This document shows positions 1 through 15,052 of a stretch of 20,000 nt of DNA, piece by piece. The notes below the pieces were generated by a model. The model was not told the DNA's origin and did no database searches. It was given only the letters and a program-made list of their open reading frames with translations. The stretch is from an uncultured virus (IMG/VR IMGVR_UViG_3300034200_002321) (Duplodnaviria; Heunggongvirae; Uroviricota; Caudoviricetes), in IMG/VR virus record IMGVR_UViG_3300034200_002321; one strand, 5' to 3'. Both the position numbers and the translations under genes were made by a program. The first letter of the stretch is position 1. Each line of letters begins with the position of its first letter.

Positions 1-129
1 TTTCTTTGCCGGTGGCGTTGCCGGTGGCGTTGCCGGTGGCGTTGCCGGTGGCGTGTTGGCAGCGGTTGGCAGCATTGCCTGAAGCGCGGCCAGTGTCTGA
101 GCGAGTGCTGTGAGTGTTTGTGCGTCCAT
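1..129 (-). CDS. 5' part of a leftward hypothetical protein (MDAQTLTALAQTLAALQAMLPTAANTPPATPPATPPATPPAKK...), runs off the window
   Basis: ATG at 129-127 with an AAGGA RBS upstream on the minus strand; open for 43 codons to the window edge; a minus-strand copy of the 17-bp box lies upstream. Confidence 0.75.
   Translation of the reverse strand, partial: MDAQTLTALAQTLAALQAMLPTAANTPPATPPATPPATPPAKK
6..53. repeat. 4 x 12-bp tandem repeat TTGCCGGTGGCG, encoding (TPPA)4 on the minus strand
   Basis: Read directly from the sequence. Confidence 0.95.
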
Positions 130-201
130 TGTTTGAGTCCTTAAAGCTGGTGATACCTTCCGCTCCGAAGTGGTGCGGCTAGGTTTGGCGTTGCCGTTTT
201 C

Positions 202-218
202 CAGTCGGCAGCACCTGC
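202..218 (-). promoter_or_regulatory. 17-bp box copy 1 (GCAGGTGCTGCCGACTG on the minus strand)
   Basis: Identical to the plus-strand copy at 2015; points toward the leftward gene. Confidence 0.85.
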
Positions 219-300
219 TTTTAATTATATAATTTTCAGACTCTCTAGGTTAAGGCATTTTAAAAATTCTCTGAAATGATAAAATTGGGTGATATTATGG
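219..300. promoter_or_regulatory. AT-rich divergent promoter region
   Basis: Palindrome AATTATATAATT (223-234) gives TATAAT on both strands; TGnTATTAT extended -10-like element at 290-298; flanked by two outward-facing 17-bp boxes. Confidence 0.6.
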
Positions 301-360
301 GCAGGGGATGCCGACTGTATGGTGGGCAGTCCCACCCTACGGGGGAGGACTTCTCCCACC
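301..360 (+). promoter_or_regulatory. 17-bp box copy 2 (GCAGGGGATGCCGACTG, 301-317) plus a long imperfect hairpin (321-360)
   Basis: Motif match; GGTGGG...CCCACC outer stem with inner AGTCC/GGACT pairing. Confidence 0.75.
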
Positions 361-436
361 TGACCGCGGCAGCCTATTATAGGGTGGAAAAGATTCTACC
401 CCGGGGCCGCCTCGCCCTGCCATCGCCTAGGCAGAT

Positions 437-526
437 AGGTGTCAGAAAGCGAAGCCGCGGCTTAATGCCTTGTATGAGGTGTTAGAAAGCGGAACTGCAT
501 GCCTTGTATGAGGTGTCGGAAAGCGG
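437..526 (+). repeat. Imperfect direct repeats ATGCCTTGTATGAGGTGTYRGAAAGCGG (465-492, 499-526) plus a partial copy AGGTGTCAGAAAGCG (437-451)
   Basis: Read directly from the sequence; spacings of 40 and 34 bp. Confidence 0.9.
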
Positions 527-539
527 CATCCATATAAGA

Positions 540-615
540 GCAGGTGTGGCCGACTGGTTCGGCGTGGCGTCGGCTGTCGTCGCCACCCTCACGTCCTTCG
601 ACTTGGAGTCTCATT
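540..615 (+). promoter_or_regulatory. 17-bp box copy 3 (GCAGGTGTGGCCGACTG) plus hairpin 564-586 and TTGGAG RBS
   Basis: Motif match; imperfect inverted repeat GTGGCGTCGGC/GTCGTCGCCAC; TTGGAG before ATG 616. Confidence 0.8.
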
Positions 616-828
616 ATGACGCATTATTGTTTCTGCGGGGCCGCCATCGACCCTGACCGCTTCGACGCCGGCTTTGCCACCTGCATTCAGCATGGTGACA
701 AGCACAGGCATGCTGGATTCATGGTCTTCGACCACAAGACCGCACCACGTCTGGCCATTGTCCCTGTACGACCGGGGACTGAAGAGCCGCTGCGTCTCGC
801 CCACCGCGCCAACCGACGATCACGGTAG
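616..828 (+). CDS. Small zinc-finger protein, TraR/DksA C4-finger-like
   Basis: CFCGAAIDPDRFDAGFATCIQH resembles the CxxCGxxIxxxRxxA...CxxC pattern of DksA/TraR fingers (last ligand His); TTGGAG RBS. Confidence 0.55.
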   Translation: MTHYCFCGAAIDPDRFDAGFATCIQHGDKHRHAGFMVFDHKTAPRLAIVPVRPGTEEPLRLAHRANRRSR

Positions 829-837
829 GAGACGCTC

Positions 838-1251
838 ATGATCCGATGGTTTGATTGTGAAGCTGACGACGCAGGCCGCATCTGCGACAAGGCCTATCAC
901 ATCGCTGAAATATGTGACATCTACATTCGCAGGAACAAAGAGCTGACCATACTGGCCTGTGACGACAGCGGCGACGTCGTCGGGGCTGTCTGGGTGTCGA
1001 TTGAAGGAGACGAGTATGACTTTGATGTCTGTGTACACCCAGAGCACCGCAACCGTCGCCACGGTCTTGATTTGATTGAAGCAGCAATCAGGCATTTCGG
1101 CGACGTTCGGAGTGCATATATCGACCTCGACATGCACATCAAAGTCTGTGTGGTCAATCCGAAACTGGTTCGAGTGCTGGCCGCAAAATACGGTTTTGAC
1201 ATTGAGGCTGAGAAGCCATTAGTCACCATTATGACACTTCACTTGGAGTAG
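838..1251 (+). CDS. GNAT-family N-acetyltransferase
   Basis: DVCVHPEHRNRRHGLDLIEAAI resembles GNAT motif A; C-terminal N-P...KYGF motif; 137 aa; AGGAG RBS. Confidence 0.75.
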   Translation: MIRWFDCEADDAGRICDKAYHIAEICDIYIRRNKELTILACDDSGDVVGAVWVSIEGDEYDFDVCVHPEHRNRRHGLDLIEAAIRHFGDVRSAYIDLDMHIKVCVVNPKLVRVLAAKYGFDIEAEKPLVTIMTLHLE

Positions 1252-1254
1252 AAA

Positions 1255-1410
1255 ATGCTTTGGTACTACGCCGCACACAGTAGCGGATCAGACCCAAATG
1301 AACGCCATCTTACATTCGCAAGCTATGGTCACCGCGACGAGACCAAAGCGTCTGCTGAACAAACAAAGGCGCACAAAGCGACTACGAGGTACAACAAGAA
1401 GCGCAAGTAA
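1255..1410 (+). CDS. 51-aa basic hypothetical protein (MLWYYAAHSS...RYNKKRK), absent from the ORF track
   Basis: TTGGAG RBS at 1243-1248, ATG 1255, TAA ending at 1410 just before box copy 4. Confidence 0.6.
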   Translation: MLWYYAAHSSGSDPNERHLTFASYGHRDETKASAEQTKAHKATTRYNKKRK

Positions 1411-1414
1411 CACT

Positions 1415-1486
1415 GCAGGTGTTGCCGACTGTGTGGTGCTGGCTGCTGTGGTCAGCACCGTCTTTTACTTTCAAAGGACCATTGAT
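1415..1486 (+). promoter_or_regulatory. 17-bp box copy 4 (GCAGGTGTTGCCGACTG) plus hairpin 1435-1459, U-rich tract and AAGGA RBS
   Basis: Motif match; GGTGCTGGC/GTCAGCACC stem. Confidence 0.85.
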
Positions 1487-2014
1487 ATGAACGAGAAGAC
1501 AGAAGAATTCATTGCCGAGCTTGACGCGAGGCCGTTTTGCTGCAGCCCGGAAGTGGCTCGCAAGCTCCTGACCATGCTGTTGGCTCACGAGGCTGATCCA
1601 GACAATCCAGCTAAAGTGCCACTGCGGTGGCATGATGCCGAGATCACAGCCTACCCCCACCCCGACACGGTGTGTTGTGGTAAGAGTGGTATGTACCGAA
1701 TGGTTCTCGGCGGTCGCCCACTTCGGTGGGACGTCGTGGTGGTTGAGGAGCTGCAGCCTCTGACAGTGCTCAAAAACATCCGAGTTCGCCGGAAAAGCAG
1801 CGTGACCAAATTCGGCGTCAGTGACTGCAGCGAACAGGCGGTCAAGACTGCAATCAAGATCGCTGCTGAGAAGCACAACGTCAACCCGAACGACATTCAG
1901 TGGACGATCGATAACATCGACGAGGGAGTTGGCGACGTGCACCTTATGCACGTCAAACAGACACCTTGGAGCGAGTGGCGACAGCAGCAGGAATCCCCCG
2001 TTGCTGTCTCATAG
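1487..2014 (+). CDS. Hypothetical protein (MNEKTEEFIAEL...)
   Basis: ORF; start moved to ATG 1487 based on the RBS and the upstream box. Confidence 0.75.
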   Translation: MNEKTEEFIAELDARPFCCSPEVARKLLTMLLAHEADPDNPAKVPLRWHDAEITAYPHPDTVCCGKSGMYRMVLGGRPLRWDVVVVEELQPLTVLKNIRVRRKSSVTKFGVSDCSEQAVKTAIKIAAEKHNVNPNDIQWTIDNIDEGVGDVHLMHVKQTPWSEWRQQQESPVAVS

Positions 2015-2088
2015 GCAGGTGCTGCCGACTGTGTGGTGCTGGCTGCTGTGGCCAGCACCGTTTTGTGTTTTTCTTGGAGACAATCACA
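2015..2088 (+). promoter_or_regulatory. 17-bp box copy 5 (GCAGGTGCTGCCGACTG) plus hairpin 2035-2059, U-rich tract and TTGGAG RBS
   Basis: Begins immediately after the TAG stop; perfect 9-bp stem GGTGCTGGC/GCCAGCACC. Confidence 0.9.
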
Positions 2089-3045
2089 ATGGCGTCAATT
2101 GGTAAAATCATCTGGGCTCATTTCGACGAGCAGAATGCTAAGGCAAAAGCTGCTGATGCACGGCAGCAGGGAGATGAAGCGGCAGCAGCTGCCGCTGATG
2201 CTGAAGCGGATGAGGCCGCGAAGGCCAAGGCTCTGGCTGACGCTCAGATGACCTTGAAGATGTCGGTGATGCACACAATCACCTGCACCTGCGGTGACAT
2301 CCTGGACCAGAGGACAGCCCGAGTGTTTCAGATTCACGGTCACGTTCGCCGTGTCCTCTGCCCTCGGTGTGCAGAGCAAGTTGTGACAAGGCTGCGGGAG
2401 AAGGATGCCTCTCGGTTGTCACAAGAGGATCAGGATACTATTGCAAACATGCAGGTGCTTTGGTGGAAACGTGGTGCCCAGCCCCTGAGGGAGGCTGAAT
2501 TTGACAAACCCAAAAAACCCAAGGCACCGCGTGGCACTGGTAAGAAGGCGTTCGCCAGTGTTCTCCGAGTGCTGGAGACACATAGCAAAAAGGGCCAGTC
2601 AGGGGCTGCTCAGGCTCATCTGGATCATGGCTTGGTGATTTCATACGCGTTTTGGATTCAGTTGCCACCAGAAAGCCCGCTGCGAGCTCCTACTGCGATT
2701 GCCGGCGAACGGAACCGCGATTACGAGTGTATGGTACGCAGCGTACAGGAATGGAAACGATCACCCCAAGTGGCACCCCTGACTATCGATGTCAACCCAC
2801 AGAAGATGGACGGTTGCTGGGGTCACGTGGTGAGACACGAAGGCAAGCCGGTGACTCGCACATTTGTCGATGCGAAATATCTTGAAACCATTTGCGAGTT
2901 CACCGATCTCGGTGGTCTGATCAGCTGCTGGGCGACGGAAGAGATCAAAGCAGATCAGCCGTTGCGGTGCCAGATTCTTATCCTCGATCCCGGCAACAAC
3001 GTGGTCGCTGGGGTCATGCCATTCTACGAACGGGAGGTGGTTTGA
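2089..3045 (+). CDS. Hypothetical protein: Ala-rich helix, CxC...CxxC zinc ribbon, Lys-rich linker and a possibly sliding-clamp-like C-terminal domain
   Basis: ORF from ATG 2089 (MASIGKII); CTC and CPRC motifs; FVDAKYL and terminal VAGVMP. Confidence 0.75.
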   Translation: MASIGKIIWAHFDEQNAKAKAADARQQGDEAAAAAADAEADEAAKAKALADAQMTLKMSVMHTITCTCGDILDQRTARVFQIHGHVRRVLCPRCAEQVVTRLREKDASRLSQEDQDTIANMQVLWWKRGAQPLREAEFDKPKKPKAPRGTGKKAFASVLRVLETHSKKGQSGAAQAHLDHGLVISYAFWIQLPPESPLRAPTAIAGERNRDYECMVRSVQEWKRSPQVAPLTIDVNPQKMDGCWGHVVRHEGKPVTRTFVDAKYLETICEFTDLGGLISCWATEEIKADQPLRCQILILDPGNNVVAGVMPFYEREVV

Positions 3046-3189
3046 GTGCGATTCTTCAATGAGGCACAGGCGTGGCGGTATCTGAAACACAAATACCCAG
3101 CAGCCGTGCAGCGGCAGTATCGAGTTGTCCCCTGCAATCAGCCAGCTGATTGCGGGGGGCTTTCTTTTCACATTGTCCAAAGGAAATAG
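3046..3189 (+). CDS. 47-aa hypothetical protein (MRFFNEAQAWRYLKHKY...), absent from the ORF track
   Basis: GGGAGG RBS at 3032-3037; GTG directly after the previous TGA; fills the gap exactly. Confidence 0.6.
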   Translation: MRFFNEAQAWRYLKHKYPAAVQRQYRVVPCNQPADCGGLSFHIVQRK

Positions 3190-3193
3190 AGTT

Positions 3194-3634
3194 GTGAAGT
3201 ACAAAGAAGTTGTGGAGACCTTGTTCAAACTGTTGGCTGTGGCAAACGCAGCAGATGCAGACGATGCCGCCGATTGGCAGGCACCGAAAGATGCGAATCA
3301 GAGAGACGGGCTGTTTGGTGACATACATAAAGCCATCCTCCGAATTGCCGGGAACGACGTGCTCGATCACTGGGCCGCAAGCGGCGAGGTAGAGATGCGA
3401 CTTTGCCGCCGGACGCTCCAGCAGCACGACGATCGGTATGCGAAGGCGTGGTATGTTCGCATGCCGAGAGAGTTCCATGCACTCGGACCATACAGGTTCA
3501 AGAGCCATGTCACGGCAGAACACGCAGTCGAACTGGTCATTGCCCAGTTCGGACTCCCGCCCGCTGAGGTCTGGCCGGATGGTGAGACGACGGAGGGAAA
3601 CATGTACGAGTACGACTACACGTATACGGAGTAG
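3194..3634 (+). CDS. Hypothetical protein (MKYKEVVETLF...YEYDYTYTE)
   Basis: GTG start with AAGGA RBS; TAG overlaps box copy 6. Confidence 0.7.
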   Translation: MKYKEVVETLFKLLAVANAADADDAADWQAPKDANQRDGLFGDIHKAILRIAGNDVLDHWAASGEVEMRLCRRTLQQHDDRYAKAWYVRMPREFHALGPYRFKSHVTAEHAVELVIAQFGLPPAEVWPDGETTEGNMYEYDYTYTE

Positions 3635-3702
3635 CAGAGGTCGCCGACTGGTACACTGTCGACCGGTGTGGTCGGCAGCTAACTTTTTTCTTGGAGAAAA
3701 AC
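3634..3702 (+). promoter_or_regulatory. 17-bp box copy 6 (GCAGAGGTCGCCGACTG) plus hairpin 3656-3678, U tract and TTGGAG RBS
   Basis: Motif match; CTGTCGACC/GGTCGGCAG stem. Confidence 0.85.
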
Positions 3703-4044
3703 ATGTTGCATGAACAGGCTGAACAGATCCTCGCAGAGGTGACCACACTCCCCCTGCGGAACCCAGATGATTTCATCGATGCAGTTCTCAATCGCATCCC
3801 TCTCGACGATGATCCTGATGGCTGGTGTATTGAAGACCTAAGCTTGGACGAGTGGAGTGGCGAACATGACGGGGTCCGGTACTTGTACCGGAACAACGGG
3901 GATTACAATCGCGATACATCTCCTGTGTTCTGGGTACACCAGCCACTTACGCATGACGAGCCCATCAAGTTCGGCTACAGCCCGTGGCCGCCGGGATTGC
4001 AGAACACATTTTTGGACGCTGAACGAAAGGGACAACGACCATGA
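3703..4044 (+). CDS. Acidic hypothetical protein, paralogous to the N-terminus of 4594-5718
   Basis: ATG 3703 with RBS; near-identical translation to the second repeat copy. Confidence 0.8.
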   Translation: MLHEQAEQILAEVTTLPLRNPDDFIDAVLNRIPLDDDPDGWCIEDLSLDEWSGEHDGVRYLYRNNGDYNRDTSPVFWVHQPLTHDEPIKFGYSPWPPGLQNTFLDAERKGQRP

Positions 4045-4313
4045 TGATTCAAGAACTGATCGAACGCCTGGAAAAACTCCGCGAGCTCCACGGACCGGAC
4101 TGCGAAGTCCGCTTGATGACTCAACCGACGTGGCCGTTCCAGACGACCATTGGCGGGATTGTGAGCTCGGAAGAGATTCACCGGGCGGATGCGGAACGTT
4201 GTAGACCATTCTATGCGATAGACGACGATGGCGACGCTCCGCCGGAGGTGGTCTTCCTCCTCGAAGGCACCCAACTCAGGTACGGATCCAAGTCCGCCTG
4301 GAATCTGGTCTGA
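4041..4313 (+). CDS. Small hypothetical phage-type protein (MMIQELIERLE...EVRLMTQPTWPF)
   Basis: ATGA overlap with the previous gene; plausible protein composition. Confidence 0.75.
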   Translation: MMIQELIERLEKLRELHGPDCEVRLMTQPTWPFQTTIGGIVSSEEIHRADAERCRPFYAIDDDGDAPPEVVFLLEGTQLRYGSKSAWNLV

Positions 4314-4328
4314 ACCGGGAGCCACGAC

Positions 4329-4539
4329 ATGCCACGCCTGAGTTGCCTGAAACCCGGCACTCGATTCCGGGTGCCCGAACTGGACCTGACAGCGACGCTG
4401 CTGATGGTGAACGAATGCCGGGCAGCACGCAGTCGAACAGGCCATTGCCCAGTTCGGAGTGGCACCCTCTGAAGTCTGGCCGGATGGTGAGACGACGGAG
4501 GGAAACGAGTATGAGTACGACTACACATACACTGAGTAG
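4329..4539 (+). pseudogene. Chimeric remnant: a gene start (MPRLSCLKPGTRFRVPELDL...) joined out of frame at about 4426 to the duplicated 3' end of the 3194-3634 gene
   Basis: GGGAG RBS and ATG 4329, stop at 4470-4472; the duplicated HAVEQAIAQFG...YTE* segment (4426-4539) is in a different frame. Confidence 0.65.
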
Positions 4540-4593
4540 CAGAGGTCGCCGACCGGTGTGGTCGGCAGCTAACTTTTTTGTGGAGAAAAAAAG
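4539..4593 (+). promoter_or_regulatory. 17-bp box copy 7 (GCAGAGGTCGCCGACCG), lacking 15 bp relative to copy 6, plus hairpin 4548-4566 and GGAG RBS
   Basis: Direct comparison with 3634-3702. Confidence 0.8.
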
Positions 4594-5718
4594 ATGTTGA
4601 ATGAACAGGCTGAACAGATCCTCGCAGAGGTGGCCACACTCCCCCTGCGGAACCCAGATGACTTCATCGATAGGGTGCTCGATCGCATTCCTCTCGACGA
4701 CGATCCCGATGGCTGGAGTATTGAAGAGCTGGACTTGGACGAGTGGGCTGGCGAACGAGACGGGGTCCGGTACTTGTACCGGAACAACGGGGACTACGAT
4801 CGCGACACATCACCTGTGTTCTGGGTACACGAGCCGCTCACGCATGACGAGCCCATCAAGTTCGGCTACAGCCCGTGGCCGCCAGCACAAGCCGCTCTCC
4901 GGGCGGCGTACTGTGAGAAACACAAACGAAAGGAATGCCCGCACTGCCAGGCTCTCATCCACCAAGACTGCGTCAGCTGTCCAAGCTGTGATCGGTACCT
5001 CGACACTGGCGGCCCTGTGGTTCCGGTTGAAAACGTGCTGCCGGAGGAGAGTTGGTACTGTCTGGAGGACGGCGGCAGCGATCGGTATCGCTGGGTGTAC
5101 GGTCAGCTCCTTCCAACAGACGACCCCGGGGTGCTGGTAATCGAGTTGGATGTACTGCCGTCTGACGGCCGGCGAGACCACGATGCACCGGAACAGTGGT
5201 GTGTTACAATTCGGTTTGCCATGCCCGACGGGGTGCGCAAGCAGGACCGGCAAGCCATGTTTGCGTCTCTGGGCATTGAGTCGTGGACGCCAACAAGCAA
5301 TCGATTTGCAGTTGAAGAGGTCTGGGAGGGTGCTGTTGACATACCGAAAAAGCACCAGCGTCGGCTGGGCTGGAAGGGAGTGCAACTTGTCCCTGGCGGG
5401 AGCGTTGACCTCTGTATGTTCAGCGAGTATGCAGATGCACGTCGTTGGTGCAACGAGCGTAACAAGTGGTTTGCTCAGGCTGTCAAAGCCATGGCTTGCT
5501 TGGACTACGGACTGTCGGCTGCGTTTTGGCAGTCCACTGGGTACTGCCCGTCGAGGCTCGTGGCCGCCGCCCGTGAAGAGGCTGCTGGCATCCACATAAT
5601 CATGACAGGGTGCAGCCTTGACAAACCACAGAATGGGGTTGGTGCAACCGGCTGGGAGACTTGCCGCGGCTACGATGTCACCAAGGCGGTAAAGAGGGCC
5701 TTGAAAGAACAGAAGTAG
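4594..5718 (+). CDS. Hypothetical protein: duplicated N-terminal domain, CPHC/CPSC zinc ribbon and a unique C-terminal region
   Basis: 374-aa ORF with RBS. Confidence 0.8.
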   Translation: MLNEQAEQILAEVATLPLRNPDDFIDRVLDRIPLDDDPDGWSIEELDLDEWAGERDGVRYLYRNNGDYDRDTSPVFWVHEPLTHDEPIKFGYSPWPPAQAALRAAYCEKHKRKECPHCQALIHQDCVSCPSCDRYLDTGGPVVPVENVLPEESWYCLEDGGSDRYRWVYGQLLPTDDPGVLVIELDVLPSDGRRDHDAPEQWCVTIRFAMPDGVRKQDRQAMFASLGIESWTPTSNRFAVEEVWEGAVDIPKKHQRRLGWKGVQLVPGGSVDLCMFSEYADARRWCNERNKWFAQAVKAMACLDYGLSAAFWQSTGYCPSRLVAAAREEAAGIHIIMTGCSLDKPQNGVGATGWETCRGYDVTKAVKRALKEQK

Positions 5719-5737
5719 ACTGGCTCTTGCCTGACCA

Positions 5738-5806
5738 GCAGGGGCGGCTGACTGTGTGGTGCTGGCTGTCGTGGCCAGCACCTTTTTCCTTCTTGGAGGA
5801 GTGAAT
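5738..5806 (+). promoter_or_regulatory. 17-bp box copy 8 (GCAGGGGCGGCTGACTG) plus hairpin 5758-5782, U tract and TTGGAGG RBS
   Basis: Motif match; perfect GGTGCTGGC/GCCAGCACC stem. Confidence 0.85.
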
Positions 5807-5989
5807 ATGACATACTATTACGGTAGCGAATACCCACGAGAGCCGCTCATCATCCGATTCTGGAGCACGCAAGGACATTTTGCGGCATGGGACATCGTCG
5901 CCAGCGCCTGCGTCGGCATTTGTACTCCTCGGCTGTTGGTGATGACAAGCCCCGCGTTTGTGGTTCCCGCCGTGGAGGTGCAGCAGTGA
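5807..5989 (+). CDS. 60-aa hypothetical protein (MTYYYGSEY...VEVQQ)
   Basis: GGAGGAG RBS, ATG 5807. Confidence 0.6.
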   Translation: MTYYYGSEYPREPLIIRFWSTQGHFAAWDIVASACVGICTPRLLVMTSPAFVVPAVEVQQ

Positions 5990-6354
5990 GTATCCACGGG
6001 TGTATGGTGGGCGTGACTGTGATTCATTCCCACAGCAAATGCGAGGCGTGTTCAGATACTGGGCTCGACCCAGAAACCAATTGGGACGCCTGCCCGCGGT
6101 GTCATGGCGCAGTAAATGGCACGCCGGTAGTCTACTTGGTTCTCGGCGGACAGGAAATTACCGGCCAAAAAAGGCTGCGGCTACTTAACCCGCCATCGTT
6201 TGACAGCAACTACTATTCAGGCCTGTTCGGCGTGACTATCTGGAGCACAGGCGACCGCGTGATGATCGGTGAAAAACACTGGGCTAATCGCGTCGGCTAT
6301 ACGGCAATTCAGTTGGCTCAACAACCAGTTCCGCCTGTGGAGGTGCAGCAGTGA
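5986..6354 (+). CDS. Hypothetical protein with a CxxC...CxxC zinc-binding motif (CEACSDTG...CPRCHG)
   Basis: GGAGG RBS with GTGA overlap. Confidence 0.65.
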   Translation: MSIHGCMVGVTVIHSHSKCEACSDTGLDPETNWDACPRCHGAVNGTPVVYLVLGGQEITGQKRLRLLNPPSFDSNYYSGLFGVTIWSTGDRVMIGEKHWANRVGYTAIQLAQQPVPPVEVQQ

Positions 6355-6491
6355 CAAAACCATACACCGCCAAATTCCTCGCAGCCGAAAAGCGCCGGAC
6401 CACGATCCACGACCACCAGCGCCGTATCTGCGTGCTGAAAGAAGCAGCCCGTCAGATCAAAGAAAGGGAGACACGTCGTGAAAAAAGTTAA
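6351..6491 (+). CDS. 46-aa basic hypothetical protein (MTKPYTAKFL...), absent from the ORF track
   Basis: GGAGG RBS with GTGA overlap; TAA at 6489-6491. Confidence 0.55.
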   Translation: MTKPYTAKFLAAEKRRTTIHDHQRRICVLKEAARQIKERETRREKS

Positions 6492-6666
6492 ACTCAAGTA
6501 CCCCATATTCCTCAAAGGAAAAGGCCTGCCAAAAGATGGGGTGTGTGTGCTCAACGAAGGGCAGGAAGTCGAAGTCCAACAGCTGGGCAACAACCTTGTC
6601 GAGATGACAGCCACGTATCGCGGCAAACAGATCACGTGGCGCACACTTGACAGTGTGTATTGGTAG
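6478..6666 (+). CDS. 62-aa hypothetical protein
   Basis: GGGAG RBS, GTG start; TAG overlaps box copy 9. Confidence 0.7.
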   Translation: MKKVKLKYPIFLKGKGLPKDGVCVLNEGQEVEVQQLGNNLVEMTATYRGKQITWRTLDSVYW

Positions 6667-6754
6667 CAGGTGCTGGCGACTGTGAGTGTGACCGCTGGCC
6701 AGCTGCGGCTGGTCAGTGTCGTGTTCACTTTTGTTTTCTCTTGGAGAGACTCTT
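6666..6754 (+). promoter_or_regulatory. 17-bp box copy 9 (GCAGGTGCTGGCGACTG) plus hairpin 6694-6717, U-rich tract and TTGGAG RBS
   Basis: Motif match; GCTGGCCAGC/GCTGGTCAGT stem. Confidence 0.85.
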
Positions 6755-7267
6755 ATGAGATGGAATACAGATTACCAACGAGTGCTTCCGCGGGACCTGT
6801 TCAACGAGGCTGCCCTGCTCAAGTGCTTGGGCAAGGTGGCCTTGTGGATCCACGAGGGGATGCTGCCCCTGCTTACGGTTGAACACACCCCAGTGGGTGT
6901 CGGCGACCAGCACACACAGGGCTTTGATGTTCGGCTGACTGAGTGTGGCTACCTGTTCGCTGGTAGTCTCAGGTTCTACCTGTGCGGCCGTCTGGCGGAT
7001 TCTCTTGGGCTGTCAGTGTCGCACCTGTCACAGCTTAGGAGTGGGATACATCCGTGGACGAAAGAAGTCCTGTTTGTCAGCCCATACAACAGTCGTGAGC
7101 CGTGGCCGCTGCTCTGGTGCTGGAGCTATGATGGAGACATGCTGCCAGTGTTCGCATATGACGGCGAGCCAGACCCGGATTTTCTGGCGGCGATGAGGAC
7201 GCCGCCGGCCACAACAGAAGTCAATGACGCTTTGCTGACGTTCTTGGAGGGCGATAGTGATGGTTGA
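6755..7267 (+). CDS. Hypothetical protein (MRWNTDYQRVLPRDLFNEAALLKCLG...)
   Basis: ATG 6755 with RBS. Confidence 0.75.
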   Translation: MRWNTDYQRVLPRDLFNEAALLKCLGKVALWIHEGMLPLLTVEHTPVGVGDQHTQGFDVRLTECGYLFAGSLRFYLCGRLADSLGLSVSHLSQLRSGIHPWTKEVLFVSPYNSREPWPLLWCWSYDGDMLPVFAYDGEPDPDFLAAMRTPPATTEVNDALLTFLEGDSDG

Positions 7268-7586
7268 GATTATGATTAACACTGACATCGACGCACCAGG
7301 CTGCCCGTGTGAGATCCTCGGAATCTGCGATGGTGAGGAGATCGGATCTATTCTGGTACAGACTGACTGGGACTATCCGGGATTCGCTCAGTCGTTTGGC
7401 TGGACGCTGCAGAAGGTGCAAAAGTCCCGCCGTCGTAAGTGCAGTCACGACGGGACTGATGGGACGGTTCGCTGCCCTTCGTGTGGCGTAGAGCCGGGGC
7501 AGTTCATTGCAGCTGCCTACGAATTCTTGGTCAGCAACGACGGGTTGCGGGCCGTTGACCCAGGATATTTTGATAGTGGAGGATGA
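7257..7586 (+). CDS. Hypothetical Cys/His protein (CSH...CPSC), possibly zinc-binding
   Basis: GGAGG RBS at 7246-7250; start at 7257 or 7260. Confidence 0.75.
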   Translation: MMVEIMINTDIDAPGCPCEILGICDGEEIGSILVQTDWDYPGFAQSFGWTLQKVQKSRRRKCSHDGTDGTVRCPSCGVEPGQFIAAAYEFLVSNDGLRAVDPGYFDSGG

Positions 7587-7587
7587 C

Positions 7588-8133
7588 GTGGATTTAGACA
7601 CACCAAACGACGTCAAAGCGTTGGCGTTGTCGGCTGATCGTGCTTGGCTTCTTGCCAGACTGCGAGACAGCCAAAGGATGACTGACACGCCATACAACGA
7701 GCTCCTGCGGGGTAGTTCGTTCGACTTTCAAAGCAAACGACTTTGCGGGCGGCATGGTTTCACCTTGCAATGGAAGCTGAGGAGGCGACCTGACCAGCCA
7801 ATCGAGTATGACAACCAACAGGCCTCTGTTGGCATTGTTACGCTGGATAAGAAGGAAGGCTACTCTTCAGTTTATCGAAGGATTTGGGGGTCGCTGCTTC
7901 CCGACGGTTGCTTAGGGCCTGTGGTGGTCCACCCGGTCCGTTTTATCGGTCGATCGCGGGGTGCATGCGGTCTTTGCTTGATCAGAACACACACAGTGCA
8001 TGATCCTTTGGGGGAGCCGGATGCCGCTCGGCAAGAGCTGGCTGGCCTGTGGGAAATACACCAAGACTTTGGTGTCGATGTAGACACACAACTCAGACAT
8101 GTGCATGGCCCGTTTATCCGCCGTTCTTATTAA
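7588..8133 (+). CDS. Hypothetical protein (MDLDTPNDVK...)
   Basis: GGAGG RBS, GTG 7588. Confidence 0.7.
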   Translation: MDLDTPNDVKALALSADRAWLLARLRDSQRMTDTPYNELLRGSSFDFQSKRLCGRHGFTLQWKLRRRPDQPIEYDNQQASVGIVTLDKKEGYSSVYRRIWGSLLPDGCLGPVVVHPVRFIGRSRGACGLCLIRTHTVHDPLGEPDAARQELAGLWEIHQDFGVDVDTQLRHVHGPFIRRSY

Positions 8134-8144
8134 AGGAAATTCTT

Positions 8145-8465
8145 GTGCGCAAAACAACACCACCCCCTGAGGTAGTAGACAGCAAGCTACGAGAGAGGCT
8201 TGAGCAGTATGTGCTGGATCACCACGCGATCCATATCATTCCAGAAAACACGCTGGAGCATTTTCTTCTGGTCGCAACGCCGCCAGTGAGAGACCAGCTG
8301 TGGACTGTCGTGTTTGCCCTTCCGTGGGAACAGTTGAGAGCTCTTTACTCTCCGTCGAGCAACTGTGAGCCTTTTGAAGAATCTGTGAACAAGTACGCGG
8401 TCGAGATCGCCACCTGTGTGTGGTCTCGTGAGTTTTCAAAACGGTATCCAACAGGAGAACGCTGA
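8145..8465 (+). CDS. Hypothetical protein (MRKTTPPPEVV...)
   Basis: AAGGA RBS, GTG 8145. Confidence 0.65.
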   Translation: MRKTTPPPEVVDSKLRERLEQYVLDHHAIHIIPENTLEHFLLVATPPVRDQLWTVVFALPWEQLRALYSPSSNCEPFEESVNKYAVEIATCVWSREFSKRYPTGER

Positions 8466-8482
8466 CTTTTTGGAGGGACCAC

Positions 8483-8686
8483 GTGCCTGCTGTCGTTAGT
8501 ACTGGTGCTGCTATTGAGAGTTTTTGTTACTTGACACTCAGAGAAGCGGTCGAAGTTGTTGCGTTTTTTCGCTCACTCGGCTGGGTTGTGTCCGAACCCA
8601 TCCAAACTTCAAGCCGCGAGCTGGGTTGGCAGCCGGATTGTTACGTTTACGTGCTTCACGCTGTTCACCACTCCCGTATTGATTAG
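8483..8686 (+). CDS. 67-aa hypothetical protein
   Basis: TTGGAGG RBS, GTG start. Confidence 0.65.
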   Translation: MPAVVSTGAAIESFCYLTLREAVEVVAFFRSLGWVVSEPIQTSSRELGWQPDCYVYVLHAVHHSRID

Positions 8687-8705
8687 TTTTTCTTGGAGAA
8701 AAAAT

Positions 8706-9545
8706 ATGTCTGTTCAGCAGCTCACACCCGCGACAATTGACATGACACTGTGGGTTTCAACATACGCAAGTCAGTACCACCCCGCTCCGTGGGAGGCCGA
8801 TGTCTGGCACTACGGACCTATTACGTCAGAGAATGGCCCTCTGCGAGTGGGACTTGATGTCTGGTCTGCGGTCTCCATGCTGCGGGCAGCGGACCTGAGG
8901 TATGCGGTGGAGTACCTCAATGATCTGGCCTACTGGGAGAGGTATAAGGACGATCGCAGACCTGCCTGGCTGCCACCCAGCCTGCTGATCTGGAGCGAAC
9001 CCCCAGAGACAATCCAGTATCTGAATACTTGGTGGCATCGAAATTTTTCGTGGCGGTGCAGCAAGCACCAGTCACCGGAGCACGCCGGTGACGGGTCTCT
9101 CATCTATCTGATGCTGGGGTGTGCAGACGCAACCCGTATGCAAGCTGCAACTGGCACCTTGCGGCCAGAGCACTACGACCGGGTGCTCATGTACTGTAAA
9201 GCCGCTGAGTGTTGGCGGTACAACACCATTGAAGGTGTTGATTTGTTGCGAGCCGAGCTGAACCTTGCGACAGCGGCAGGTCGCACGCCTGAACAAGCTG
9301 TTTTTGACATGCGGCAGGCAGACCTGGAGGCCTTTGAGCTCTGTGTGCACAGTAAGCACAAAGACGCATACGTTCGCTGGCTCAGAGGGTTGCAGGATGA
9401 CGACTTGCGCAACATGTACTACACGCCGATGACGCACAACCCCCTGTGTGTTGCAGATCGAATTGAAAAGCAGCTTGGCATCATCTACCGAACGCTGTGT
9501 CATCAGATGCCGGGGTATGCTAATGCACCTTGGAATAGCCGTTAG
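8706..9545 (+). CDS. Trp/Tyr-rich hypothetical protein (MSVQQLTPATID...)
   Basis: TTTTTCTTGGAGAAAAAATATG leader; ORF. Confidence 0.8.
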   Translation: MSVQQLTPATIDMTLWVSTYASQYHPAPWEADVWHYGPITSENGPLRVGLDVWSAVSMLRAADLRYAVEYLNDLAYWERYKDDRRPAWLPPSLLIWSEPPETIQYLNTWWHRNFSWRCSKHQSPEHAGDGSLIYLMLGCADATRMQAATGTLRPEHYDRVLMYCKAAECWRYNTIEGVDLLRAELNLATAAGRTPEQAVFDMRQADLEAFELCVHSKHKDAYVRWLRGLQDDDLRNMYYTPMTHNPLCVADRIEKQLGIIYRTLCHQMPGYANAPWNSR

Positions 9546-9547
9546 AA

Positions 9548-9621
9548 GCAGGTGACGGCGACTGTGTGGTGGGTCGGTGATGGTCACCGACCCACGTTTC
9601 TTTTTTCGATTGGAGCTTTGT
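9548..9621 (+). promoter_or_regulatory. 17-bp box copy 10 (GCAGGTGACGGCGACTG) plus a perfect 12-bp hairpin 9569-9595, U tract and TTGGAG RBS
   Basis: Motif match; GTGGGTCGGTGA/TCACCGACCCAC stem. Confidence 0.9.
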
Positions 9622-10392
9622 ATGGACTTGTGCAAGAAAACAAAAGAACACCCGGACTGGGTCAATACTGCAACAGGAGCGCACGTGCTCTTCGTCGACA
9701 GCATCTATCGCCTGGCGTACAGGAAGCTCGACGAAGGCGGGTCGTACTTGTTGGAGACGCCGCCGAAAAGGCTTCTGAGGTGGTTCTATACCGACGCCAC
9801 TGAAGACGAAAAGCAAACGCTGTCCGAGGTTCACGCGTGTATCGAACAGTTTGGGCAGGGTCTCCACATCAACAACAGCCCACTCGGTGTGTTTGTTTTG
9901 ATGTACAACGTCATGAACGGCAGGGCAGATCGGCTGCACACGGTGCTGGACCAAGGCATGCTGTCTCGTTTTGAAAAACGAATCCTCAAGAAAGACGGCA
10001 CTCTGACTAAAGAAGCACGTGCGGTCTTGGAGAGGACTGTGACTCCCGAGGTGCGGTATTGCCGGCCGTTCTACACCATCGACGGAGTGCTTCCCGAGCC
10101 ACCGTACTACCGGTGTGGTTTTTACGCATCACCACGCTACAACAAGCTGTATTTGCGTCTTGATACCAATTTTGCTGTGACACGAACAGACACATACAAC
10201 GGAAATCAAACACGAGAGATACTTTTGGCAGACACTGACAATGGGGTTGTGTCAAACATCCACCTGTGGTTCACCCCTCGGCGTACTGACTGGACTGAAA
10301 TCGAAGTACTTGCGCTCAAGGCACGAACAAAAGAGCTGCGAGCCGCGTATGAGCGAAGCCGCAGTCTGGCCGACGAATTTCCTGACTACTGA
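9622..10392 (+). CDS. Hypothetical protein (MDLCKKTKEHPDW...)
   Basis: ATG 9622 with RBS. Confidence 0.8.
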   Translation: MDLCKKTKEHPDWVNTATGAHVLFVDSIYRLAYRKLDEGGSYLLETPPKRLLRWFYTDATEDEKQTLSEVHACIEQFGQGLHINNSPLGVFVLMYNVMNGRADRLHTVLDQGMLSRFEKRILKKDGTLTKEARAVLERTVTPEVRYCRPFYTIDGVLPEPPYYRCGFYASPRYNKLYLRLDTNFAVTRTDTYNGNQTREILLADTDNGVVSNIHLWFTPRRTDWTEIEVLALKARTKELRAAYERSRSLADEFPDY

Positions 10393-10417
10393 CCAATCAC
10401 AAACGAGGAGTGTTGTT

Positions 10418-10705
10418 GTGCGAGTCACCATGGTGATGTCATCTAAACCAAACTCAAACGAGCTACACCTGAACTGGTCCGCCGATGAGTACAACAAGGA
10501 CGCAAGTCTGCAGAGCACATATGCTGTTGGACAGAAGTTCCAACGGATCACACAAGCCAGCGCGAAACTTTGCATCGGCTTTCCGGGGCCTTGGCGGGTC
10601 CAATCGCACAGTGCCAACGAAGATTCCAGCGTGACTGTAGTCCTCGTAAAACACAAGCGGGTCCGAAAGCCAAGCAGTGCAGGGTCTGGCTTTTTCTGCC
10701 GGTAA
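10418..10705 (+). CDS. Hypothetical protein (MRVTMVMSSKPN...)
   Basis: GAGGAG RBS at 10405-10410, in-frame GTG. Confidence 0.6.
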   Translation: MRVTMVMSSKPNSNELHLNWSADEYNKDASLQSTYAVGQKFQRITQASAKLCIGFPGPWRVQSHSANEDSSVTVVLVKHKRVRKPSSAGSGFFCR

Positions 10706-10809: not shown

Positions 10810-11040
10810 GTGTACGAGCTGTACGATAAGTTTGAGGCTGCTGTGGAAGAGACGCAGGGCTGGGGTTCGGAGATCGAATCAGAGCTGACTACTCTGTTGG
10901 ACCCTGAATGCTACGCCGTTGAAGAATCCCGTCTCAGCACTATCGAGTCAATAGAGACGAGTGTGAAGGCGCTGCGGACGTACCTCCGCACTCTCAAACG
11001 TGTGTCTGCAAAAATCGTGGATCTCAAAAAAGCCAAGTAG
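10810..11040 (+). CDS. Small helical or coiled-coil hypothetical protein; true start may be ATG 10785 across an A6 frameshift
   Basis: ORF; the AAGGA RBS precedes an out-of-frame ATG at 10785. Confidence 0.65.
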   Translation: MYELYDKFEAAVEETQGWGSEIESELTTLLDPECYAVEESRLSTIESIETSVKALRTYLRTLKRVSAKIVDLKKAK

Positions 11041-11060
11041 CTTTTTTGCTGGTATTTTTC
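11025..11060 (+). terminator. Weak terminator-like hairpin CAAAAAAGC-CAAGTA-GCTTTTTTG
   Basis: Perfect 9-bp but AT-rich stem followed by T-rich sequence. Confidence 0.3.
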
Positions 11061-11079
11061 TTATTCTCGGAGACTATCG

Positions 11080-11826
11080 ATGGCAGGATATTTGTTCTAT
11101 GACGGGCCGTCTATGCTGGACGGAGCCCCGATCATTGGCGTAGCAACCACTGGCAGCAAAAACTCAAAGACCGGGCCGCTGCTGCAGACGTGGATTCTTC
11201 TGAGGGACCAACACCCGTTTGTCGGAGCACACACCGGAGAGGATGCTTCTGTCTGCGGTGACTGTCCACTGCGTGGTCTTGTCGTCAACAGCCGCAACAA
11301 GCACCGATCGTGCTATGTGCAGATCCACAGAGCCCCTGCAGCGGTGTGGAAGGCACATCGTCGCAGCCCCTACCCGCCACTGCCCAAACAGAGTGCGCTG
11401 TTGAAAGCGTACTCTGTGCGAATTGGTAGCTACGGAGACCCCGTGGCGATCCCAATCCATTATTGGGAGAGGCTTTGGTCTCTCTGTGCAAACGAAGTGA
11501 GACCGGGATATACTCACCAGTGGCGAGACAGTCGTTTCCGGCACTGGTCTCGGCATCTCATGGCCTCAGTGGAATCTGAGGCAGACGCTATCTCAGCTCG
11601 CATCGCTGGGTGGCGCACATTCCGGCTGATTCCATCGGTCGATCAGATATCCTCGGAGGAGATCCTGTGTCCCGCATCGCCGGAAGCCGGCAACAAAGCC
11701 ACGTGTTCCACCTGTGGAGCGTGTGACGGTAAAAAGTCAGAGTCAGACGGGCGCCGCAGTGTAGCGATCGTCCTGCATGGCTCATTCAACCGTGTGAAAT
11801 CCGCAAAGGCGGCGCACATCATCTAG
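11080..11826 (+). CDS. Cys-rich conserved phage protein, GP88/DUF7227-like (possibly a degenerate radical-SAM/Fe-S protein)
   Basis: Motifs YDGPSMLDG, SKNSKTG, CGDCP...CY, RIGSYGDP, GYTHQW, MASVES, GWRTF and CPAS...CSTCGAC; family recalled from memory, not searched. Confidence 0.6.
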   Translation: MAGYLFYDGPSMLDGAPIIGVATTGSKNSKTGPLLQTWILLRDQHPFVGAHTGEDASVCGDCPLRGLVVNSRNKHRSCYVQIHRAPAAVWKAHRRSPYPPLPKQSALLKAYSVRIGSYGDPVAIPIHYWERLWSLCANEVRPGYTHQWRDSRFRHWSRHLMASVESEADAISARIAGWRTFRLIPSVDQISSEEILCPASPEAGNKATCSTCGACDGKKSESDGRRSVAIVLHGSFNRVKSAKAAHII

Positions 11827-11836
11827 GAGATTGGTC

Positions 11837-12250
11837 TTGTACCGAGTTCTTTTGCATTTTGCTGACGGGTATATGTACACAATGAATGTCGACAGCGAAT
11901 GGGCGGAGGTGCTTGAAAGGCTGATGTTGGCTGACATCATCTGCCCCGACGAGGTCGAGCGCAGAGTCACTCGCATCTCTCAGCACCTCACGGACAACGA
12001 GGTGTGTTCGCACCTGTTGAACGCACAGTCCTGCATCAGCAAGCATTTTGCGACATACCCAGCAGTGACTTGGAGCGTCGACCTGAGAAACCGCATCGCT
12101 GTCTCATCTGTCGGGTGCACACTGACCGTGTCCGTACCGGATACAGATGAGCCGAACGTCACCTGCTTACGTGTCGCGATTGGCTGTCTTCGCGACTCGG
12201 AAGCTCACCGGATTCTGCATGCTGCTGGAGTGCCGGCGTGCCTTACCTGA
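11837..12250 (+). CDS. Hypothetical protein
   Basis: AGGAG RBS, TTG start (exact start uncertain). Confidence 0.6.
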   Translation: MYRVLLHFADGYMYTMNVDSEWAEVLERLMLADIICPDEVERRVTRISQHLTDNEVCSHLLNAQSCISKHFATYPAVTWSVDLRNRIAVSSVGCTLTVSVPDTDEPNVTCLRVAIGCLRDSEAHRILHAAGVPACLT

Positions 12251-12576
12251 TTGAGATAGCCAACGACCCCCCACTCGTTGTGCTCAGGCACGGCGAGTGG
12301 GATTCTTTCGACGCGATCAGGGCACAAGACCTGTCTATCAATTGGCCAGCTGCAAGAAGCTGCACCACTTGGAACAGGCTGGTAGATGTGCCTGTGCCGC
12401 TGCAGAAATGGTATCGCCTGCTTGTTGAAGAATTCAGCAACAGGCTGTACCTCTGTGAAAACGGCTCTGTGTGGACCACCGCTGTCTCCCCCGACGGGGT
12501 GCGGTGGGCCACGAAACCTGTCAGGTTCCACGCGAACATGACATACCTGTATGACTTTGCCATTCGAGAGGTGTGA
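12238..12576 (+). CDS. Hypothetical protein
   Basis: GGAG RBS, GTG start. Confidence 0.65.
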   Translation: MPYLIEIANDPPLVVLRHGEWDSFDAIRAQDLSINWPAARSCTTWNRLVDVPVPLQKWYRLLVEEFSNRLYLCENGSVWTTAVSPDGVRWATKPVRFHANMTYLYDFAIREV

Positions 12577-12577
12577 C

Positions 12578-12772
12578 TTGTCAGAAAAAGGATTAGTGCT
12601 GACTGTACCTGTTGGCCGTCATGCTGTCATCAACCCAGGCCCTAACCAGCTGAAGGTGGAGGTAGCACGCGTTTCGGGTGATAAGGTACGACTGAGATTC
12701 CTTGGTGACCGAGAGTGTTACAAGGTCATTCGTGATTCACTCGTACACGAAGAGGATGTTGACATTGTCTGA
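12578..12772 (+). CDS. csrA: CsrA/RsmA-like RNA-binding protein (divergent)
   Basis: GLVLTVPVGRHAVINPGPNQLKVEVARVSGDKVRLRFLGDRECYKVIRDSL follows the CsrA pattern L.LTR..GE.I.IG..I.V.V....G.QVR.G..AP....V.R.E; 64 aa; GAGG RBS. Confidence 0.65.
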   Translation: MSEKGLVLTVPVGRHAVINPGPNQLKVEVARVSGDKVRLRFLGDRECYKVIRDSLVHEEDVDIV

Positions 12773-12911
12773 GATCATCGCTGGATACGCAGTCCCCACG
12801 GCGATGCTGGTACTCGTTGCCGGTGTCGTTGTGAAGGCCTGCGTGACGTTGTGGGGTGTGCATCAAACCGAAAAAACTCAAGGATACCGGAGGGTCAAAT
12901 GGCGAAAATGA
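12765..12911 (+). CDS. Small single-pass membrane protein
   Basis: Hydrophobic IIAGYAVPTAMLVLVAGVVV followed by a basic tail; GAGGA RBS; start at 12756 or 12765. Confidence 0.55.
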   Translation: MSEIIAGYAVPTAMLVLVAGVVVKACVTLWGVHQTEKTQGYRRVKWRK

Positions 12912-13471
12912 GCGACCGTCCACGGGACTGCCGAGACTGGCAGCCTTGGTGGCGGCATGTTGTGATGGTTGACGTTGAAAAGAACACATGTGAAGCTGTC
13001 GTGTGGGAGATCTGCCGCTCCCGTGCCAACCGTTGCTGGATGATACGCAGCGTCACCGTGCATTTGCAGGGACACCAGGAGCAACGATCACCCGGCGCGA
13101 GTCGGTGTGTGCCTGTCGAGGTGGGCCACCAGTGCTACGGGTTGGCACTGGCATATGACTCGCAAGCGAACCAGGCAGCGACTCCCGACCTGTTCAAGAC
13201 AGGGATCCCCTTTGCTATAGAGCCAGAGCCCCAAGTGGTCCTGCAAGACTCTTGGTTCGATGGCCGACCACACAAGATTGTTTGGCCTCCCGGTGTGTTC
13301 GCGCTGCACATGGCGTTGCGTAGGGCCTGCCGAACGCGGCGTGTGCGGTGCAACATCAGCGTCACCAAACCGCCCAGTGGGTGGATCGTGAAAAACATCG
13401 TCCCCGAAACACCAGCAGAGCTGCTGTTCTGCACAACAGGAGCGGCATGTGCCACACGTCATCCCCGATGA
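12899..13471 (+). CDS. Hypothetical protein
   Basis: GGAGG RBS, ATG 12899. Confidence 0.65.
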   Translation: MAKMSDRPRDCRDWQPWWRHVVMVDVEKNTCEAVVWEICRSRANRCWMIRSVTVHLQGHQEQRSPGASRCVPVEVGHQCYGLALAYDSQANQAATPDLFKTGIPFAIEPEPQVVLQDSWFDGRPHKIVWPPGVFALHMALRRACRTRRVRCNISVTKPPSGWIVKNIVPETPAELLFCTTGAACATRHPR

Positions 13472-14186: not shown

Positions 14187-14200
14187 GAGAGGAGTAGTCC

Positions 14201-14554
14201 GTGTCCCAAGACACACCCATTTCAATCAGAATGCGTGGCTTTGCGCGGTTGAGCAGGAATTATCGACAGCGGCTGATCCGAGAAGCTAAGGACGCACAGC
14301 GGCTTTTTAGAAATCTACCAGAGCGACAATGCTGCTGGGGCGGCCTGACTATCGCAGAGATGGAGAAAGCACACATTATGTCGCAAGACTGGGAATCCCG
14401 TCGGCAGCAGGCCGTGTCTGAACTGCTGAGCCGCGGGTACACTCTCGGCCGGAAGAAAGACCCAAGCGGTACGTTCCGCACCGGGTGGTGGTGTGATAGC
14501 CGCTGGATCGCAGAGACAGCGGAAGAGGCCCTTCGTCTCGTCAACGGTAACTGA
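14201..14554 (+). CDS. Basic hypothetical protein
   Basis: GAGGAG RBS, GTG start. Confidence 0.7.
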   Translation: MSQDTPISIRMRGFARLSRNYRQRLIREAKDAQRLFRNLPERQCCWGGLTIAEMEKAHIMSQDWESRRQQAVSELLSRGYTLGRKKDPSGTFRTGWWCDSRWIAETAEEALRLVNGN

Positions 14555-14569
14555 AGAAAGGTTTGTTGC

Positions 14570-14845: not shown

Positions 14846-14871
14846 CACTGTCTCGGCTTGTGCCGTGGTTC

Positions 14872-14902
14872 ACGCCCCGGAGGTCGGCCGGGGTGTTTCT
14901 TT
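14872..14902 (+). terminator. Rho-independent terminator candidate near the end of the rightward block
   Basis: ACGCCCCGG-AGGTCGG-CCGGGGTGT stem followed by TTCTTT. Confidence 0.6.
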
Positions 14903-15044: not shown

Positions 15045-15052
15045 CTCAGCGG

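Follow-up and report, generated by a model that had tools for sequence, protein, structure and literature searches.

A 20,000-nucleotide stretch of DNA from an uncultured Caudoviricetes phage (IMG/VR record IMGVR_UViG_3300034200_002321), referred to here at its full length as the window, carries ten copies of a 17-bp box, GCAGRKGNNGSYGACTG, that punctuate the early gene block. Every copy lies between genes and points toward the gene that follows, and each of the eight internal copies (540 to 9548) is followed by a hairpin of its own. The reading that fits this anatomy best is that the box is a reiterated antitermination signal, placed before the intrinsic terminators of one early operon and in one additional leftward unit; we put the probability of this reading at roughly 0.38. 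To our knowledge, no phage has been described that uses repeated, short-range antitermination of this kind.

A Repeated Box in the Early Gene Block

The box element is real and strongly non-random. With up to one mismatch allowed, GCAGRKGNNGSYGACTG has 11 matches in the window, compared with a mean of 0.07 and a maximum of 1 in 200 shuffles. Nine matches are exact, at 202–218 on the minus strand and at 301, 540, 1415, 2015, 3634, 5738, 6666, and 9548 on the plus strand, and the copy at 4539 has one mismatch (T16 to C). These are the same ten boxes that an earlier, sequence-only reading of the window had picked out. The remaining match, with one mismatch at 2276–2292 on the minus strand, was rejected as a member; it lies inside a gene on the wrong strand and scores 11.2 bits with a position weight matrix (PWM) of 24 columns built from the ten copies. 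The copies themselves score 21.4–35.6 bits, and the next-best scores are 11.2 bits in the window and 9.2 bits in a second IMG/VR record (G001; 24.7 kb, 98% identical), which covers window positions 10830–20000 and 15.5 kb beyond. No further box was found with the PWM or the pattern between 9.6 and 20 kb of the window or in the 15.5 kb beyond it, in line with the earlier statement that none occurs past 9.6 kb or in the replication module. The visible sequence, the window plus G001, comes to 35.5 kb of a 66,195-bp genome.

All ten copies are intergenic, although intergenic DNA makes up only about 12% of bases 1–9621 by our own gene calls, and all ten, including the single leftward one, share the orientation of the next gene; both points had been claimed from the sequence and hold throughout. 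The contacts with upstream stop codons are also as described. The box at 2015 abuts a TAG stop codon, and at 3634, 4539, and 6666 the first G of the box is also the last base of a TAG, an overlap of one base. Other copies start 2 nt (9548), 4 nt (1415), and 19 nt (5738) past the upstream stop. A role in translational read-through was rejected because the box is found in all three reading frames relative to the upstream stop. A leader peptide translated from the Shine–Dalgarno (SD)-like AGGUG in the box was also rejected, as frame, length, and stop position are inconsistent among the copies.

In five copies (301, 1415, 2015, 5738, and 9548), conservation continues to 24 nt, GACTGTRTGGTG. These five bear three different hairpins, and the extension reaches GGTG, the first hairpin bases. 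The sequence upstream of the boxes is unconserved, with an information content of at most 1.1 bit per column. On the 3′ side, a G falls within 2 nt of the box in nine of the ten copies. The box itself contains a partial dyad, CAG..G....C..CTG.

The box is under selection. Contigs from four freshwater runs were aligned to window positions 1–10000; the differences listed are 40 of 632, nearly all of them at 61–482, and conservation of the box between strains is readable for the first two boxes only. Among the differences listed, strain X6 has 18 substitutions and one insertion in the spacer between these two boxes (219–300), a divergence of about 22%. In the flanking boxes the differences listed are confined to box positions 9 and 8 (210 and 211) and position 6 (306), each of them degenerate, and the 22 invariant positions of the two boxes are all kept. 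Strains X10 and X14 have the same three box changes and no others among the differences listed.

The box matches no known consensus or family among those tested. Rfam gave no matches at E values up to 1 for window positions 1–10500. In IMG/VR viral contigs, the box patterns gave only isolated, chance-level matches in unrelated sequence, some of them judged coding by eye. A set with one genome per GTDB species gave 28 single matches to an 18-base pattern, as chance predicts, and JGI metagenomes gave no box matches. In 301 Burkholderiales genomes, the strict box pattern occurs at most three times per genome and is not enriched, so the box is not a host promoter type in the Burkholderiales sampled. 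A host repeat is excluded on the same grounds for that sample. These searches bear out the proposal that the box belongs to a dedicated, phage-specific regulatory system without a recognized consensus.

Hairpins, U Tracts, and Ribosome-Binding Sites

A hairpin starts 1–6 nt after the box in the internal copies, except at 4539, where the box itself forms the 5′ arm. Folding energies of the eight hairpins are about −15 to −26 kcal/mol. Stems are 9–13 bp apart from that of the copy at 6666, with an overall range of 9–22 bp, and the loops are 3–5 nt and unconserved. The hairpins therefore vary in sequence and length while the linear box is conserved. The sequence-only reading had assigned a hairpin, a U tract, and a ribosome-binding site (RBS), usually TTGGAG, to all eight copies. 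The hairpin is present in every one. A U-rich tract follows the stem in seven and is absent at 540, and TTGGAG is found in six, with GTGGAG at 4539 and AAAGGA at 1415. Start codons lie 76, 72, 74, 69, 55, 69, 89, and 74 nt from the box start, in copy order, which is the range that had been given (55–90 nt) to within a nucleotide.

The first internal copy (540–556) has a hairpin at 561–588, the RBS CTTGGAG, and an ATG at 616. The next two have terminator-like hairpins of almost the same sequence: the box at 1415–1431 is followed by a hairpin at 1433–1461, then CUUUUACUUU, and an ATG at 1487, and the box at 2015–2031 by a hairpin at 2033–2061, a U tract, and an ATG at 2089. The box at 3634–3650 precedes a hairpin at 3656–3678 and an ATG at 3703, and the box at 4539–4555 is built into the hairpin at 4544–4570, with the ATG at 4594. 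Another terminator-like hairpin, at 5758–5782, follows the box at 5738–5754 and leads into UUUUUCC and an ATG at 5807. Behind the box at 6666–6682 is the long hairpin, 6684–6730, with four G.U pairs, a U tract, and an ATG at 6755. The last box, at 9548–9564, has a terminator-like hairpin at 9569–9595, a U tract, and an ATG at 9622.

The hairpins appear to be RNA rather than DNA structures because their stems contain G.U pairs (540, 1415, 2015, 3634, 5738, and 6666), and the near-identical, paralogous hairpins at 1415 and 2015 differ by a G-C pair in one and a G.U pair in the other. In a terminator scan of the window, five of the eight strongest plus-strand terminator-like sites fall directly behind a box (9569, 2033, 5758, 1433, and 3656). 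In two copies (3634 and 4539), the box is predicted to pair through its 3′ half with the 3′ arm of the hairpin, and an occupied box would then block the hairpin. The copy at 4539 is a 15-nt deletion derivative of the one at 3634, with the loss between two GCCGAC repeats. Pairing of the box with a downstream partner as a general feature was rejected: it is found in five copies, is inconsistent among them, and leaves the strain change at 306 uncompensated.

An extended RBS motif, TTTTTCTTGGAGA, includes the U tract; it also occurs at 8687 without a hairpin, and at 11061 and 14894 it follows hairpins not preceded by a box. Because this motif is found without the box, the box is a separable module that stands before a module of hairpin, U tract, and RBS. 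Hairpins without a box include a weak, AT-rich one at 11025 and a strong terminator-like one at 14872–14896 on the plus strand, where the rightward block ends. Ahead of the 14872 hairpin, the sequence resembles only the 3′ half of the box. Behind this terminator come an RBS-like motif and a hydrophobic open reading frame (ORF) of 35 codons (14937–15044), and the region 14840–15053 is where the rightward block converges with the leftward replication block.

The Divergent Spacer and the First Leader

The first two boxes face outward from an 82-bp spacer (219–300) that is 76% A+T. The leftward box (202–218) starts 5 nt after a TATAAT-like hexamer of the spacer and precedes a leftward gene with its start codon at 129. 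On the other side, a −10-like hexamer ends 2 nt before the rightward box (301–317). A promoter scan of the window found 13 sigma70-like sites, three of them in this spacer (two at 10/12 and one at 9/12), and the spacer has two of only three 10-of-12 matches in the scan. In the variant strains as rebuilt from the differences listed, the leftward −10-like hexamer keeps five of six matches. There are four sigma70-like sites on the plus strand, at 205–233 and 271–298 in the spacer and then at 11913 and 14989. With the next plus-strand site only at 11913, the genes behind the hairpins would need read-through.

The scan found no sigma70-like −35/−10 pair at the eight internal copies, and the aligned boxes have no −10/−35 bipartite architecture. 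The sigma54 consensus consists of GG and GC doublets at fixed spacing (−24/−12). The box does not follow this pattern: the GG is not invariant, with AG in two copies, and there is no GC at the required distance.

The second box opens a long structured leader. Positions 301–400 fold at −49.4 kcal/mol (z −4.0 versus shuffles), and a hairpin at 321–360 has no U tract. Within it, 337–365 shows many substitutions and single-base indels in related strains, which exclude coding and may be compensatory. Upstream of the box at 540, the region 465–535 holds two 34-bp tandem repeats (465–498 and 499–532), with a third, partial copy near 434. Each repeat contains AGGTGT..GAAAGCG and shares AGGTGY with the 5′ half of the box. 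The sole substitution at 366–540 among the differences listed (40 of 632) is 482 T>G.

A Proposed Reiterated Antitermination Signal

Hairpins followed by U tracts should stop bacterial RNA polymerase whatever role they serve, and four or more strong ones in series separate the genes at 7–15 kb from the only sigma70-like promoter region, so that either read-through or re-initiation is needed. No conserved element other than the box is available for either role. The order of the parts fits antitermination, because the box precedes the hairpin in all eight internal copies and a re-initiating promoter would be expected after the terminator. Of the three mechanisms offered by the sequence-only reading, a nut-like site before a terminator fits the anatomy best for this reason, since the signal always comes ahead of the hairpin. 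Consistent with antitermination are also the lack of −10/−35 elements, the lack of a polymerase gene in the 35.5 kb read, the final terminator without a box, and the overlap of the box with a hairpin arm at 3634 and 4539.

As a mechanism, host RNA polymerase would start in the AT-rich spacer (219–300), and each transcribed box would load a factor onto the elongating polymerase or keep it there. The factor may be phage-made, perhaps from one of the three genes at 616–1410, or it may come from the host. The box could be read as nascent RNA, as are the lambda nut sites and ribonucleic antiterminator (RAT) sites, or as non-template DNA exposed at a pause, as with ops. The polymerase would then pass the intrinsic terminator that starts 1–6 nt past the box. 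Without the factor it would stop at the first terminators, and the early genes would be released stepwise; the last terminator (14872), which has no box, would end the operon. We tentatively suggest that the conserved loading signal precedes at least six individual intrinsic terminators and also marks the two divergent promoters, with re-licensing of host RNA polymerase at every step. It is possible, though still doubtful, that gating proceeds through the early operon one gene group at a time, with the signal recognized either in the nascent transcript or in the non-template strand at a paused polymerase.

Several observations weigh against this reading. The copies at 202 (leftward), 301, and 540 have no terminator behind them. 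A strong 15-bp hairpin with a U tract at 3127–3160 has no box; it falls inside a putative 47-codon ORF (3046–3189), which may not be real given the hairpin within it. The RBS motif that includes the U tract also stands at 8687 with no hairpin, so any role in termination may be incidental. Since the two promoter-proximal boxes lie at predicted start sites, an RNA copy might miss the first box bases, and the rightward sigma70-like sites are lost in three variant strains rebuilt from the differences listed. The early proteins gave only sub-threshold hits in Pfam, PHROGs, and NCBIfam, with no factor identified. Among 20 runs listed as containing the phage none is an RNA run, and the mechanism is inferred from sequence. 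Finally, none of the systems known to us places an antitermination site ahead of every terminator in turn, although the literature was not searched exhaustively.

One likeness is to the nut and RAT sites. Lambda has two nut sites, each with a boxA and a boxB, and the boxB hairpin is the conserved, N-binding part. As in lambda, a conserved linear signal is followed by a hairpin, is orientation-specific, and lies downstream of divergent early promoters, with terminators between the early genes; as in RAT sites, the box overlaps a terminator arm in two copies. Unlike lambda, there are ten boxes rather than two, the hairpin is variable and resembles a terminator itself, and there is no sequence similarity or Rfam match. 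In RAT sites of the BglG type, the binding site overlaps the 5′ terminator arm in every copy; here, pairing of the box with a hairpin arm is limited to 3634 and 4539, and three of the ten copies lack a terminator. A different known system is ops, which loads the antitermination factor RfaH onto paused polymerase, with a pause-inducing TG at ops positions 11–12 and a requirement of RfaH for G4, G5, A7, and G8 (PMC5995543). Like the box, ops is a short, oriented signal in transcribed leaders (PMC5995543). As a post hoc lead, box positions 6–17 can be set in register with the 12 positions of ops, sharing G7, G10, G13, T16, and G17, in which case T16 and G17 would correspond to the pause-inducing TG. 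Compared with ops (PMC5995543), the box shares only part of the central RfaH bases, adds a conserved 5′ GCAGR, and occurs in ten copies.

Other Readings of the Box

A phage-specific promoter was also among the mechanisms first proposed. T7-type promoters are a single block followed by a 5′ stem-loop leader. The box might likewise be a contiguous 17–24-bp promoter, recognized either by an RNA polymerase that the phage encodes or carries in its virion, or by the host enzyme aided by a phage factor, which we consider somewhat unlikely. The details of this reading, a start at or just past the 3′ end of the box and a hairpin that acts both as a 5′ mRNA stabilizer and as the 3′ end of the upstream transcript, are doubtful as well. 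A promoter would account for the contiguous conservation of 17–24 nt into the first hairpin bases (GGTG) across three different hairpins, a length in agreement with the contiguous block of 17–23 bp or so, ending at the start site, expected of a T7-type promoter. The strict orientation, the start codon 55–89 nt away, the G within 2 nt of the box in nine of ten copies, and the restriction to one gene class point the same way, as does the poor conservation between strains of the sigma70-like hexamers of the spacer next to boxes that are kept (among the differences listed). The early leaders with hairpin, U-rich stretch, and RBS resemble both the T7-type arrangement and that of YuA, a phage in the family of the distant (<60% identity) tblastn matches to the DNA polymerase. 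In YuA, nine promoters share a conserved non-bacterial motif that needs a phage factor, and the motif keeps a −10-like hexamer, TATACT in eight of the nine motif promoters (PMC10914365). The box, in contrast, has no −10-like element. Transcripts would also meet a hairpin and U tract at once in seven of the eight internal copies, where termination would be expected; the 35.5 kb read contain no gene for an RNA polymerase or sigma factor; and the box is unenriched in the sampled Burkholderiales. A phage polymerase would have to be injected, because the boxes serve the very first genes. A promoter would have to explain both the firing of most copies straight into a terminator-like hairpin and a polymerase that reads the box without −10 and −35 elements. 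Short-loop hairpins before early genes, with a G just past the hairpin in some copies, also recall the promoters of N4 and LUZ7, which have stems of 4–7 bp, a conserved 3-nt loop, and a start 13–14 nt from the hairpin center (PMC9163698). Here the stems are instead 9–22 bp with G.U pairs, a long conserved box stands upstream, and no N4-like genes were seen; an N4-type hairpin promoter was rejected on the stems, the unconserved loops, and the lack of a protein like the N4 virion RNA polymerase.

A model not considered in the sequence-only reading, which would fit the distribution and orientation of the copies well, is that the box is an asymmetric operator for a monomeric or asymmetric repressor. 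The two copies in the divergent region would be operators, and the eight intergenic copies would be orientation-dependent roadblocks like the stoperators of mycobacteriophage L5; overall, this is unlikely. In L5 and other cluster A phages, stoperators are asymmetric 13-mers found in promoter regions and short intergenic spaces, with an orientation that correlates with the direction of transcription and more than 20 copies genome-wide in temperate phages with a known repressor (PMC9283540). The box shares with them its asymmetry, its places at promoters and in short intergenic spaces, and its orientation with transcription (PMC9283540). All ten copies are co-oriented and intergenic, several touch stop codons, two lie at the predicted start sites of back-to-back sigma70-like promoters, and the partial dyad would be expected of a site for a DNA-binding protein. 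A fixed module of hairpin, U tract, and RBS would by itself force the box-then-hairpin order, so that order does not speak against an operator. The differences are that the box is 17–24 nt, that its ten copies fall in one 9.6-kb block with none in the other 26 kb visible rather than genome-wide, and that the internal copies are tied to hairpins. No repressor, integrase, or sign of lysogeny was found in the 35.5 kb, where the only helix-turn-helix (HTH) protein belongs to the replication module. Roadblocks directly before strong terminators would be redundant, and a second mechanism would be needed for passing the terminators in lytic growth. RNase III needs a longer stem than most of these hairpins offer, and an RNA processing or stability site, cut by an endoribonuclease of host or phage beside a protective hairpin as in the early region of T7, is very unlikely, as is a substrate for cassette shuffling by recombination. 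Hairpins between early ORFan genes 0.2–2.9 kb apart would suit either, but for processing the stems are short (9–13 bp, 6666 apart) and have no conserved lower stem with the box. In favor of recombination, about 900 bp are duplicated in tandem in the window, a box included, but not in related strains (3521–3992 versus 4426–4883, 89–90% identity). The duplication spans a gene end, the box and hairpin, and about 100 codons from the start of the gene that follows. For comparison, PeSLs of T4-like phages are composite terminator/promoter motifs in the intergenic DNA between ORFans, where they mediate shuffling, and consist of a stem-loop upstream of a sigma70-like −35/−10 promoter, then an SD sequence and a start codon (PMC4122927). 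The box likewise belongs to a repeated composite cassette between early ORFan genes that ends in an SD sequence and a start codon, and its repeats may promote duplication. Here, however, the order is reversed, with a non-sigma70 box upstream of the stem-loop and no sigma70-like promoter, and three strain replacement joints (2274 to 2491, 3285 to 4418, and 5854/5857 to 6421) lie inside genes, not at boxes. The invariant bases are also kept between strains (among the differences listed), which passive homology would not need. The suggestion that the box is a recombination site is therefore unsupported. An integron attC-like site was rejected as well, as there is no complementary box beyond the hairpin.

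The Phage and Its Genes

The phage is a novel freshwater phage without a close relative in the collections searched, and it is present in freshwater and lake metagenomes of 12 studies. Megablast of window positions 1–10000 against phages gave no match, and protein-guided searches with four queries returned G001 or nothing. DNA polymerases of the nearest cultured phages are only about 33% identical; the closest, at 34%, is that of Janthinobacterium phage Donnerlittchen (Mesyanzhinovviridae), whose genome map has no comparable early block. Two relatives of gp9622, at 72% and 66% identity, were found only on Logan contigs (20,663 and 11,590 bp).

The early genes have no known relatives except for one acetyltransferase. 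Recognizable genes of the window are this GNAT acetyltransferase (838–1251), a phrog_2554 protein, an SNF2 helicase, a family A DNA polymerase, the small HTH protein of the replication module (18867–19115), and an Enc34-type single-strand-binding protein. Three small genes (616–1410) precede the first terminator and gave no significant family match. The first rightward gene (616–828) encodes 70 amino acids with a Cys-x-Cys ... Cys-x-x-His pattern and an arginine-rich C terminus, and there is a weak lead to a TraR/DksA zinc finger (Atlas score 0.88; no Pfam hit).

G001 adds a DUF2800 exonuclease, a tail chaperone, and two large ORFans of 1839 and 1041 amino acids, which are adjacent and next to the tail chaperone (G001 14834–23487). 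Searches of PDB sequences, PHROGs, Pfam, and 50,697 phage records returned no match for these ORFans. They were rejected as a virion polymerase because the catalytic motifs searched for are absent and there are no PDB or phage matches.

Both ends of the window are repetitive. Positions 1–60 hold 12-bp tandem repeats that encode a Thr-Pro-Pro-Ala linker in the leftward gene, and positions 19811–20000 hold 21/63-bp repeats that encode a Pro/Gln/Gly-rich stretch at the N terminus of the single-strand-binding protein, beginning with its second residue; the gene is cut by the window end. Contigs of other strains break or vary at both places.

Implications

Under any of these readings, the box marks the early block and the boundaries of its units. 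If it is an antitermination signal, it would be a new way to time early genes, with many short-range licenses, each ahead of a terminator of its own, rather than one processive switch, and in synthetic gene circuits the box with its terminator would make a compact, portable part. A promoter would point to an unrecognized transcription factor or polymerase in an abundant lineage of freshwater phages. If it is an operator, control of the stoperator type would extend beyond the actinobacteriophages.

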